In this document: piece after piece, positions 9,001-12,000 of the stretch | Layout: each line of letters begins with the position of its first letter | How positions within the stretch are numbered: position 1 is the stretch's first letter | NCBI GenBank assembly: GCA_034669905.1 | Contig: JAXMOL010000054.1 | Span: 1 to 49,650, forward strand | Direction of reading: 5' to 3' | DNA length: 49,650 bases | Source: Candidatus Hydrogenedentota bacterium | Lineage (GTDB): Bacteria > Hydrogenedentota > Hydrogenedentia > Hydrogenedentales > JAEUWI01 | Position numbers: made by a program

Positions 9001-12000
9001 CTGGTCTTGGAAAATGACGCCGAGTACAAGCGGTGGAAGATTGAGCGAAAGAATGCATTGCGCCTGGGGCGGGACCGCAAGGCCCAAGCGGCCCTCCGTG
9101 AAGAATTGGATAGCGTGCGGCTGGAAGTGTCCAGCAACCTCGGTCCGGCGGGTGCAGAGAAACTGGCCAAGGCCGAGCCCCCGGTTGTGGCGCCCACCGG
9201 GCCGGACGCCACGCCCACGGCAACACCCACGGCGGCCCGTCGCAACAATCCGAGTCCGGCCCCCCGCCAGAACAATTCCTCGCGGGACGTCAGTTTCCGG
9301 ATGCCGCGCGTCGGTGGTGGCGGGGCGATTGACCCCCTCTCTGGGGTCATGGTGCTGGGACTGGGTACCCTGGCCTGGGCACGCCGCCGCCGCTCCTAGG
9401 ATAATCGCCGGGGTGGGTTGGCAGGTCCGAAAGGACGCCGACCCACCCCGCCTTGCCACAAACACCGAAAGGAATTCATCATGTGGAAACATGGGAACGA
9501 TAGGCAGGCCCCCCGCGTGGTCCTTACGCCGCTACTGACGGCCCTGGCCGTGCTGGTCTGGTATGCGCCTGGGCTCAGCGATGCCTGGCGCTATGAGCAG
9601 GCCCGGGGCCTGGATCAGGCCTGGCGCCTTTTGACCTGCCACTGGGTCCATTGGACGGGTGGCCACCTGTTCTGGTCGGGCGGGGCGTTTCTGGTTTTGG
9701 GCGCCGCCTGCGAGGAATTGGGGCGCTGGCGCTACTTGGTCTGTGTGGTGGCCTCGGCAGTGTTGATTCCCCTGGGACTGGCTTATTGGACGCCCGACCT
9801 CGCGACCTACGGCGGACTTTCGGGTATTGATTCGGCCTTCTTTGGAATGTTGGCGGTGGCCATGGCCCGGGATTCCCTGGCAGCCCGACGTTGGTATGGT
9901 GTTGCCCTGGTGGGGCTGTTGTGTGTGGGCTTCGCCGTCAAGATCGGCTATGAAATGGTGACGGGTACGGCCGCCTTCGTGGGGCCCACAGACGCCATGG
10001 TGCCCGTGCCCCTGGCCCACATCATTGGCATGGTCGTAGGCCTCGCTGTCGGGGCGGGGGGCTGGTGGGTGGACCGCGCAGCGAAACGGGAGACATGGGG
10101 CGCGGCACCGTCTCAGGGACTGTCTCGCCCCGCGTGACGTTGCAGTGCTATGAATGGCTATGGACGTCTCGCGTCGTTGCCGTAGGTGCGGTGTCATCAA
10201 TGGGCGTGGCTGTCCCGTCGTTTGCGGAGTTGGCGGCGAGTCGCCTTCGCGAACGACGGGACAGCCCCCGCCGTCTTCGTGTTGTGGGGTGGGGGGGATC
10301 GCTATGCTGGCCTGCATGGGTCTGCGGGTACCTGACGTCGTATGGCGCGGCAGTCCCTGGTTTAGCGCTCACGTTTCCATGTGTCGACCCGGCTCAGAAA
10401 TGCCGGCTCCTTCCCTAAGGGGCGCCCCTTCTGTGTATGTCGCCGCACGCTATCGGCCATCGCCGTATCCTTTTCCGACACGCTGAGCATTTCAAACCAA
10501 CTCTCTGCCGTGAAGCGACGAAACCAGCGGGTGAGGTCGAGCAGTCGGTCACCCCGTTGGCCCAGATGGGGTGCTGCGCTGGACCAGGGATAGCCCCAGG
10601 CTTCTTGTACCATTCCCGCCCGCAATGGATTCAGTTCGACGTAGGCAATGGCGTTTACGGCGTGTTCTGCGTCCATGGGGCACGAATAGAATCGGCTCTG
10701 CCAGAGGTGACCACTTTGTTCGTACTTGGTATGAAAGTGCTCGGTGTATTGTTGGTGGGTTCGTCCAAGCGCTTCTGCAAGAGAATCCTCGCTTGCAGGT
10801 ATTCCTACCAAGTGTAAGTGATTGGACATGAGACAGTAGGCGACGATTCTCAATTGATGGCCATTACTGTGACGGTGCAGGAGTTCGAGATAGGTGTGGC
10901 GATCGTCGTCGTCGAGAAAAACGTCGCACTTGTTGTTGCCCCGTTGCGTCAAATGATGTGCTACGCCGGGTATGACGATACGCGGAGATCTTGGCATGCG
11001 ATGAGGATATCGGGTATCGGGGAGTTGGTCAAGAAAAATCAGGGACCGTCTCGCCCCGAGTGAAATCGCGGTTGCGGGAATGACGGCGGACGGCTCGTGT
11101 TTTGGCGGTAGGTATAGTGTCGTAAACGGGCGTGGCTGTCCCGTCGCCTGGGGAGCTGGCGGTGGGTCACCCTCGCGAACGACGGGACAGCCCCCGCCGT
11201 CTTCGTGTTGTGGGGTGGGGGTCTTCGCTTTGCTGGCCTATTCGTGACTGTTGGTTCATGAAGCCGCGGGGCGAGGCAGTCCCTGATGTACGTCCCGTCG
11301 TTTGGGAAGCTGGCTGCGGGTCATCTTCGCGAACGACGGGACAGCCCCCGCCGTCTTCGTGGTTTTGGCTGGGGGGTATCGCTTTGCTGGCCTGCACGTG
11401 AGTATGCGGGTACCTGACGTCGCGAGGCGAGGCAGTCCCTGATGCGCGATGGCGTCTACCCTCAGGGACCGTCTCGCCCCCAGTGAAGTCGCAGTGCCGT
11501 GATTGGCTATGGACGACTTGTGTTGTCGCGGAAGGTGCGGTGTCACTAACGGGCGTGGCCGTCCCGTCGTTTGGGGAGCTGAGACTGGACTGGGTTACAT
11601 CGCCTTTCGGCCTCGCTTGGGCGACATGCTATAGTGCCGGGAATTGTTTGACTGGGGACTATGTCCGCCCGAAACGGAGGTATTGCCATGCTTGCTGGCC
11701 CGAAAACAATTCTCATGGCGCTGTGCGCGTTGCTGGCACCCCTTGTCGTCTGTGCGGCGGAGGACCCCTATCGCTCGCAGGCCCAGGCCTATGCCGATGC
11801 CATGTTGGAATTCGGCCGCGATCATTATGGCCCCACGTCCTCTCCTGATTTTGCGACGACAATCGACCTCCGCACTATGCGCATGCCCTTGGAATCCACC
11901 GAGGCCACGATAGCACTCCATGGGGAATACTTTCGTTCGGATGACTACGCCACGTCGTCCAATCCCATGTATCACATCGACCTCTACCAACTGCTCTTTG

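Follow-up and report, generated by a model that had tools for sequence, protein, structure and literature searches.

Introduction

The systems closest to the one analyzed here are the TIRtrons, described in the available text of Di Nocera et al. 2013 (PMC3733652) as moderately abundant TIR families occurring in dimers and clusters; the same text describes genomes rich in tyrosine transposases. Quentin et al. 2018 (PMC6006769) equate their TnpA-Y1 subclass 2.1 with the TIRYT of Di Nocera, and TIRYT, subclass 2.1 and RAYT Group 1 (Bertels et al. 2017, PMC5581495) are one and the same in the portions of these papers at hand. No other RAYT group is as large as Group 1. For subclasses 2.1 and 1.2, the accessible text of Quentin 2018 gives no REP-like repeats, and it gives at most four class-2 subclasses per species. 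The sections of RAREFAN (10.1101/2022.05.22.493013) available to us report REP/REPIN partners only for Group 2 and 3 RAYTs, and nine systems across S. maltophilia strains. Fixed REPIN spacings, of 71 and 110 bp in SBW25, appear in the text at hand of Bertels and Rainey 2011 (PMC3116915), and abundant flanking 16-mers for IS200 Group 3, which we infer to be subclass 1.2, in that of Bertels 2017 (PMC5581495). E. coli TnpA-REP needs single-stranded hairpins with conserved stem mismatches, according to the available part of PMC8266576.

Several repeat-specific RAYTs per genome have already been published, as the accessible text of two of these sources shows (PMC3733652; 10.1101/2022.05.22.493013). 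The system type itself is known; its Group 1 (TIRYT) branch is little studied. A literature search, covering sources other than subscription journals, returned no title or abstract on fixed-length TIR units and no activity test of a Group 1 RAYT.

Results

Y1 transposase genes of the genome

A PF01797 profile search of the genome under study (G000; 7.44 Mb, 102 contigs) identifies 15 Y1 genes, the number given in a preliminary description of this DNA; the other eight genomes of the genus hold 9–20 apiece by the same profile. The window, the whole stretch of 49,650 nucleotides analyzed here, is contig C54. Gene ids other than g04645 were mapped by inference from contig order and copy numbers, with g03433 as L007, g02440 as L013, g04549 as L014, g01063 as L015 and g03950 as L011. 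The highest real pairwise identity among the 15 Y1 proteins is 66%; a value of 100% between L001 and L013 was discarded as an end-gap artefact. The statement that none of these genes is multi-copy does not hold for one type: that represented by the broken gene on C11 (L009) has scattered end fragments on C3, C29 and C31, and more matching ends on C11, C31 and C91.

Compared with Table 1 of Quentin 2018, the proteins show four kinds of motif; subclasses were assigned by these motifs, rather than by the profiles or reference sequences of Quentin or Bertels. The four 150-aa proteins with YxxxQxxHH fit subclass 1.2, five including g04645 fit subclass 2.1 or RAYT Group 1, and three with N-terminal extensions are 2.7-like. 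The remaining three (L012, L014 and L015) fall between subclasses 2.2 and 2.6 by their H-to-Y distance of 78; they alone pass the NCBIfam RAYT cut-off (NF047646), and L015 is without the WSS tail. Proteins of about 200–211 aa had been set apart as a third class, which their motifs identify as the known subclass 2.1, Group 1 RAYT or TIRYT.

The g04645 locus and protein

The repeat of g04645 is a unit, GGGACTG...CTGTCCC, of 99–105 bp, whose two ends read GGGACTG (T end) and GGGACAG (A end). Features of the window, with minus, plus or unassigned strand, are as follows.

1–430, unassigned: array of the g04645 family at the contig start, with an intact unit at 251–351
10116–10216, plus: T/A unit, 101 bp, opening the array and overlapping a rhomboid-family gene at its 3' end
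10202–10288, unassigned: 87-nt hairpin, the A ends of two units back to back with a 41-bp palindromic spacer (fold z -7.0)
10258–10357, minus: T/A unit, 100 bp, downstream of g04645, T end (CAGTCCC at 10351) towards the gene
10362–10997, minus: g04645, intact HUH/Y1 transposase, subclass 2.1 / Group 1 RAYT (TIRYT) by motif (211-aa ORF, PF01797)
11004–11032, minus: candidate sigma-70-like promoter TTGACC-17-TATCCT, in the gap that separates the start codon from the upstream unit (consensus match)
11042–11142, plus: T/A unit, 101 bp, upstream of g04645, T-type end (GGGACCG at 11042) towards the gene
11128–11214, unassigned: second copy of the A-end 87-nt hairpin (fold z -3.05)
11184–11565: three more units, at 11184–11283 (minus), 11338–11439 (minus) and 11465–11565 (plus)
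11661–13256, plus: 531-aa pectate-lyase-like gene in an A-to-A spacer, normally 41 bp (ORF, profile match)
13314–14103, unassigned: six-unit array of the g04645 family, with no gene in it
15694–15796, minus: degenerate unit of the g04645 family

The ORF at 10362–10997 coincides with the position previously given for g04645. Its catalytic motifs, NHLH (H60, H62), WQ and YVELNP (Y119) at an H-to-Y distance of 59, correspond to the HuH, Y-x-x-x-NP, W[EQ] and Y[IV]ELNP of subclass 2.1 in Quentin Table 1. The C-terminal tail carries WSS and extends 93 residues past the tyrosine, in agreement with the SS motif and additional conserved domain of subclass 2.1; it has no HTH Pfam match. Across 50 aligned relatives H60, H62, Y119 and N123 are invariant, and the tail residues S139, S140, G191, P193 and G195 are conserved. 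The predicted structure (pLDDT 96) has E. coli TnpA-REP as its best fold match (4er8, E 1e-9), followed by the IS608 and ISDra2 transposases; the sequence match to 4er8 is weak (E 0.011). Placement among the Group 2/3 RAYTs was rejected, since the motifs fit Group 1 and NF047646 scores 71.3 bits, under the cut-off of 80. Membership in IS200/IS605 (subclass 1.1) was likewise rejected: g04645 has no match to the IS200/IS605 profile NF033573, and no intact pair of Y1 proteins in G000 exceeds the 66% identity given above. By its motifs g04645 fits TIRYT/Group 1, not a Group 2/3 REPtron. The promoter candidate upstream is the only one found by a scan in which 0.4 were expected.

Units round g04645 alternate head to head and tail to tail. 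All five A-to-A pairs have a spacer of 41 bp and yield the 87-nt hairpin, while T-to-T spacers are about 25 bp save the one that contains the gene: in the array at 13314–14103 they are about 25 bp, and the corresponding junction at 10357–11042 holds g04645. The inverted ends beside the gene, GGCAGTCCCTG on the left and CAGGGACCGTC on the right, are non-GTAG and GGGGWSAS-like, as in TIRtrons. The base ahead of GGGAC is A or C in the g04645 family and G, the base of the TIRtron consensus, in the g04815 family. Both copies of the 87-nt hairpin said to bracket g04645 are real, and the count of about 40 was about right, the hairpin recurring at 32–33 places in 21–22 clusters more than 3 kb away. 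It is the junction of two ~100-bp units, not the unit itself. Neither the hairpin nor a 268-bp tandem period was retained as the unit, because the T-to-A distance holds at 99–105 bp, and like-end spacers vary by family (41, about 30 or about 100 bp; 25 or 2 bp). In the g04645 family, the enzyme may bind the 87-nt hairpin. The 531-aa gene, 90% identical to 3871–5481 and not found in G004 (94% complete, 710 contigs), is a possible passenger of the repeat system.

Anatomy of the unit

When GGGACTG...CTGTCCC pairs spanning up to 320 bp were taken, 143 of 220 measured 100–104 bp. A wider pattern gave 198 units, comprising 137 of g04815 type, 42 of g04645 type, 16 of g03044 type and 3 others; the g04815 family is thereby far larger than the 11–14 copies first reported. 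The ends, about 15–17 bp long, are conserved and complementary. Among 89 non-redundant g04815-type units, pairing exceeds the expectation from column composition at positions 10, 13 and 15, and position 6 of the end stem is a fixed mismatch, for which the search pattern is in part responsible. The interiors have a strand skew in A+C, are alike among themselves at about 33% and show no resemblance to the gene ends; the g04815 family has a weak central GGCSAA-like box. A conserved structured RNA inside the unit was considered and rejected, as interiors fold no differently from shuffled sequence (mean z -0.06 to -0.62), and pairing in excess of expectation stops at the 15-bp end stem. Whole single units of g04645 type (fold z -3.7 to +0.7) often fold no better than shuffles; junction hairpins fold better. 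An Rfam search of 13 loci returned a single Acido-Lenti-1 match, near L001, and none at g04645.

The 195 units mapped lie at 125 loci, of which 48 carry at least two, the dimer and cluster arrangement of TIRtrons, and only two mix families. Units show a preference for convergent gene ends, where 33 of the 63 loci that could be classified lie, vs 408 of 2,223 gaps; the other 62 loci, which lie at a contig end, within an ORF or a long way from one, fall outside this count. A stop codon is followed by the T end 39 vs 10 times. The tetranucleotide GT[AG]G is absent from the T/A unit consensus, and GTGG was seen by direct reading only in the repeat of g03950 (L011). Like REPINs, Group 1 units have inverted conserved ends at a fixed distance, and are gene-specific and extragenic.

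Pairing of genes with repeat families

As a strict test of pairing we asked for a 16-mer common to both flanks of a gene, and found it for 10 of the 15 Y1 genes (L002, L003, L004, L005, L006, L008, L011, L012, L013 and L015) vs 53 of 3,971 control ORFs (P about 5e-16). A repeat of at least 10 copies within 400 bp on one side accompanies 13 of 15 Y1 genes (P 3e-4); copy number near the gene was nevertheless rejected as a pairing test because 51 of 250 random and 101 of 250 isolated ORFs (40%) also pass. The claim that at least ten genes each have their own flanking repeat therefore stands in number under the both-flank test; its list needs two swaps, and some families are shared by paralogues. 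Most families are gene-specific, with genome-wide matches that are nearly disjoint and at most 16% within crude ORFs. A distinct repeat for every gene is more than the data allow: L001, one-sided, shares the L003 family (22 of 24 intervals), and the core of L014 (g04549), also one-sided, differs from that of L015 (g01063) by one base (27 and 92 exact copies, respectively; 159 and 175 with one mismatch).

None of L007 (g03433), L010 and the broken gene L009 has a repeat family to itself. g03433 had been credited with its own REP, with the caveat that the hairpin beside it might be an unrelated neighbor; the caveat is borne out and the REP is not, as its two 400-bp flanks have nothing in common and the repeats there are neighbors. 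A single repeat, reading inward, stands at the 5' end of the gene, and the gene itself is enclosed in a dimer with ends of the g03044-type family. The same caveat proved needless for g02440, where one repeat lies on both sides and is cognate. Three of the four 150-aa genes have their own family on both flanks. After g03950 (L011) we find 306-bp units repeated 2.7 times in place of three tandem 218-bp units, and the 1.9-kb gap on C2, described as consisting of repeats, is 55% covered by sequence present elsewhere in G000.

Taken together, about ten REP/RAYT-type systems co-reside in this genome, most with gene-specific families. The earlier reading as REP/RAYT-type systems survives to that extent; the repeats of its supposed third class are TIR-type units, not GTAG REPs.

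Distribution across the genus and class

All nine genomes of the genus contain the unit (12–209 exact matches). In the rest of the class it occurs 0–8 times in 123 of 124 genomes and 24 times in G114, and a control spacing gave 0–3 matches per genome in five genomes. Matches listed from a wider collection are mostly single chance matches, the multi-match records being labelled Hydrogenedentota or unclassified.

A tree was built from 29 subclass-2.1 proteins, with the truncated C11 gene left out; long-branch warnings attach to L034, L046, L031, L019 and L025, and use of the tree was confined to the g04815 pair (94/97) and the starred clades. Outward-reading ends flank all eight g04645-clade proteins (six genomes) and both g04815-clade proteins. 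Each of the 11 proteins in two other clades, g03433 among them, has one inward-reading GGGACAG immediately ahead of its promoter. The type of end thus tracks the clade of the protein. It is not always the T end that faces the gene: at L017 (G007) and L378 (G114) the ends that do so are A-type. Of 80 distant relatives, 61 carry a GGGAC-type motif that reads inward at most 110 bp upstream, and one has the unit. For G000, G003, G001 and G005, the unit end listed most often agrees with the end adjacent to the genome's own gene. Genes of the inward type occur as 94–96% identical duplicates with unlike flanks within G002 and within G003, and as scattered fragments in G000.

Large families with no matching gene assembled were found in G004 and G008 (g04815 type) and in G002, all fragmented assemblies; fragmentation affects seven of the nine genus genomes, and assemblies break at arrays. 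In one search the g04815 query was offset, taking in 24 upstream codons and omitting the last 24 residues, and a close orthologue was still detectable with it. A degraded G002 gene was rejected as partner of the young G002 family, being of the inward-repeat type.

Movement and persistence of units

The 25 units at the 16 loci fetched from G002 are 78% alike in their interiors, and whole units have therefore been copied into dispersed sites. One site occupied in G004 has a near-precise empty counterpart in G000 (L069 vs C14). Most of 40 targeted G004 loci share the array site with G000 and differ in copy number. At the loci examined, 5 of the 15 G000 Y1 genes have a syntenic G004 counterpart, and there are gains or losses at spanned sites. 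Within G000, only one of 104 g04815-type clusters is a dispersed near-identical pair (80% threshold); with such pairs this rare, movement must be old or very slow.

A syntenic G000 partner exists for 51 of 87 G004 units, and between such partners the ends are 95.5% identical, a figure inflated by ascertainment, vs 82% for interiors and 80% for third codon positions. G000 and G008 share a unit at an equivalent place in an operon; its length is maintained (105 vs 104 bp), as are 34 of 35 end bases, with matches at only 28 of 70 interior bases.

Discussion

A REPtron/TIRtron-type reading and its alternatives

The gene-repeat pairing, the constant unit length, the conserved ends, the variable interior and the end type that follows the clade are probably explained, in our view, by REPIN/RAYT-type (REPtron/TIRtron-type) systems, slowly spread and kept by their cognate enzyme. 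About ten such systems, drawn from four or more TnpA-Y1 subclasses, would reside in the genome. In every one a HUH tyrosine transposase, present in single copy, would lie amid a cluster of its own non-autonomous repeat, which it would slowly spread and maintain. For g04645, g04815 and g03044 the replicating element would be the REPIN-like 99–105-bp unit with its unequal ends. By analogy with TnpA-REP and IS608, the enzyme may bind folded single-stranded unit ends or junction hairpins, use the fixed stem mismatch to tell the strands apart, and nick beside an end via Tyr119; rejoining, or priming of copying, would then follow at a new intergenic site or in tandem. A gene between two outward-reading units lies outside any unit and would rarely be copied, and relatives enclosed by one inward repeat pair would duplicate like IS elements. 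The reading is further supported by the copied units of G002, the filled and empty site of G004 and G000, the duplicates of inward-type genes, the synteny of one g04645-clade gene in G001 and G007, the preference for convergent gene ends, the invariant catalytic residues and the TnpA-REP fold. Weighing against it are the rarity of dispersed near-identical units in G000, the large families of G004, G008 and G002 with no matching gene assembled, the A-type ends facing the gene at L017 and L378, and the poor folding of many single g04645-type units. So does the position of the genes: g04645 is not syntenic with its 58–65% relatives, and the upstream flank of the 92% relative in G005 is unlike that of G001.

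That the units are host cis-elements under selection is distinctly unlikely as a sole account. They would serve as paired protein-binding boxes about ten helical turns apart or as 3'-end RNA stems, the transposase having merely seeded them or serving a host role. The slow divergence of the ends relative to interiors and third codon positions between G000 and G004, a contrast inflated by ascertainment, speaks for such a role, as do the end bases and length kept by the unit shared with G008, the families that persist without an assembled gene, the weak central box of the g04815 family and the preference of the T end for stop codons. End sequences that vary with protein clade and between genomes speak against it, as do the young dispersed family in G002 and the same operon gaps, which have other repeats or none in G003 and, in part, in G008. 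Such a role is compatible with the REPIN/RAYT-type reading and does not exclude it.

A gene that is itself still mobile, forming with its flanking units a low-copy IS-like composite of which the dispersed units are MITE-like debris, is very unlikely. The outermost ends of unit-gene-unit read inward, GGGACAG...CTGTCCC, as in simple TIRtrons, and Group 1 is the most IS-like RAYT group in the accessible text of Bertels 2017 (PMC5581495). Gene position is not conserved in most genus members, most comparisons being without synteny. In G004 (94% complete, 710 contigs) the g04645 array is present and the gene is absent from the junctions spanned. On the other side, one g04645-clade gene is syntenic between G001 and G007, unit interiors are unlike gene ends, and no array-type gene was found to have a near-identical duplicate between new flanks, the pair L016/L016b being a local duplication.

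Integron-like capture or shuffling of host genes at the units is highly improbable: the duplicated 531-aa gene in its A-to-A spacer, two further array-adjacent window blocks not found in G004, and a G004 locus reading repeat-cargo gene-repeat-Y1-repeat where G000 has a scar (a different repeat type) would fit it, but the unbiased, if weak, junction test (a unit at 1 of 52 synteny junctions in 60 G004 contigs, 527 kb, chosen blind to repeats, with two units in the sample) and the order that operon genes separated by units on C41 keep in G008 and G003 lend it little support, and just two gene-holding A-inside pairs were seen, in a relaxed scan whose orientation calls are unreliable.

A more far-reaching extension of the REPIN/RAYT-type reading is tentative and, on balance, unlikely. 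Group 1 HUH enzymes might have been domesticated round an element of two unequal ends about 100 bp, or ten helical turns, apart, with a neutral interior. The element would be long kept, its ends co-evolving with the enzyme, as a host-functional site (a nucleoprotein or 3'-end RNA structure) that occasionally carries a neighboring gene. With seven systems of three other subclasses, the genome would then hold ten mutually orthogonal single-strand nucleases.

Significance and comparison with known systems

Two aspects appear to be new, judging from sequence: about ten systems from four subclasses crowded into one genome, and a genus-wide, fixed-length asymmetric unit of Group 1 genes. Three Group 1 genes here have repeats, vs partners for Groups 2 and 3 only in the consulted portion of RAREFAN and none for 2.1 and 1.2 in that of Quentin 2018. 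Each of the three brings 16–137 natural candidate substrate variants, from which conserved positions, the fixed mismatch and the length rule can be read; the substrate and cross-specificity of a TIRYT are therefore directly testable. The co-occurrence within one genus of IS-like and array-embedded members of one protein family is a possible snapshot of the transition from transposon to domesticated enzyme. The gain is chiefly for specialists in mobile DNA.

The four 150-aa genes resemble subclass 1.2 / IS200 Group 3 in their YxxxQxxHH motif, length of about 150 aa and single copy; they differ in their repeats, which Quentin lists as 'no' REP and which here, as noted above, flank three of the four on both sides. 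Likeness to the REPIN-RAYT systems of Pseudomonas fluorescens SBW25 and Stenotrophomonas maltophilia lies in one divergent single-copy gene per repeat family, conserved ends, a less conserved spacer of fixed length, and tandem clusters beside the gene. Those systems are all Group 2 or 3 with GTAG-type palindromic REPs, whereas here ten systems of four subclasses (by motif) share one genome, and the Group 1 ends are without GTAG and are not palindromes alone, with interiors that have no conserved hairpin. The TIRtrons and their TIRYTs come closest, sharing the protein motifs, the C-terminal extension, GGGACWG ends that resemble the GGGGWSAS consensus, repeat families in dimers and clusters, and several such genes per genome. 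Relative to the text descriptions of TIRtrons, on which this contrast is drawn and beside which Figure 9 and the supplements of Di Nocera may hold similar cases, the array-type genes here stand between outward-reading ends of fixed 99–105-bp asymmetric units, with up to 137 intact units per family and the unit in just one of the 80 distant relatives.

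Genes beside the g04645 array

The array around the Y1 transposase gene g04645 is accompanied by the following genes in the window:
3871-5481, pectate-lyase-like gene
7282-10137, VIT/vWA protein gene followed by a rhomboid-family gene, the 3' end of which overlaps the first repeat unit of the array
11661-13256, pectate-lyase-like gene inside a repeat spacer
The two pectate-lyase-like genes share 90% identity with one another, the label having been checked against Pfam for the 11661-13256 gene; no close counterpart of either was found in the congeneric genome G004.

Broken, nested and probably lost repeat loci

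On contig C11 of the genome under study (135619-136450), an inward-repeat TIRtron, a transposase gene flanked by inverted repeats, is interrupted after the WQG motif, and the interrupting stretch carries GGGACAG and CAGTCCC motifs. End fragments related to this TIRtron are present on C3, C29, C31 and C91, and G004 has them at other positions. In the genome under study, the region C30 83163-84793 is a nested repeat graveyard; there, the spacer of a g03044-type unit dimer encloses g03433 and at least three other repeat types.

A REPtron with cargo was observed in G004 (contig C279; locus L051, 852-3093), ordered as a long hairpin repeat, an unknown 226-aa gene, a repeat, a Y1 gene and a further repeat, whereas the matching site in the genome under study (C24, ~94450) retains a one-arm scar only, which likely reflects loss of the entire REPtron together with its cargo.

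The commonest 16-mers genome-wide are hexamer runs of GAAGGT, GAAGGC and GAAGGA (up to 539 copies), which we take to be, probably, Glu-Gly coding repeats. Many contig ends, including those of C82, C88, C43, C23, C1, C59, C19, C11 and C84, carry identical 110-127-bp stretches matching positions 198-324 and 1480-1606 of locus L040; they probably represent the termini of a recent multi-copy IS causing the assembly to break.

Repeat units and Group 1 genes in relatives

Within the genus, G002 harbors a young family of T/A units (repeats with unequal ends) at dispersed sites (L357-L372) with extreme C+A skew, and no matching transposase was found in its 60-contig assembly. In the unit dimers of G001, G005 and G007 the spacer also measures about 100 bp, giving 100+100+100-bp elements. 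Two Group 1 Y1 genes of G007 (C1 5992344-5998413; L016), 90% identical and about 5.5 kb apart, are apparently a local duplication. Array-embedded Group 1 genes also occur in other genera, with the opposite end polarity in G114 (C238; L378) and with shorter units in G067 (L377 and L381).
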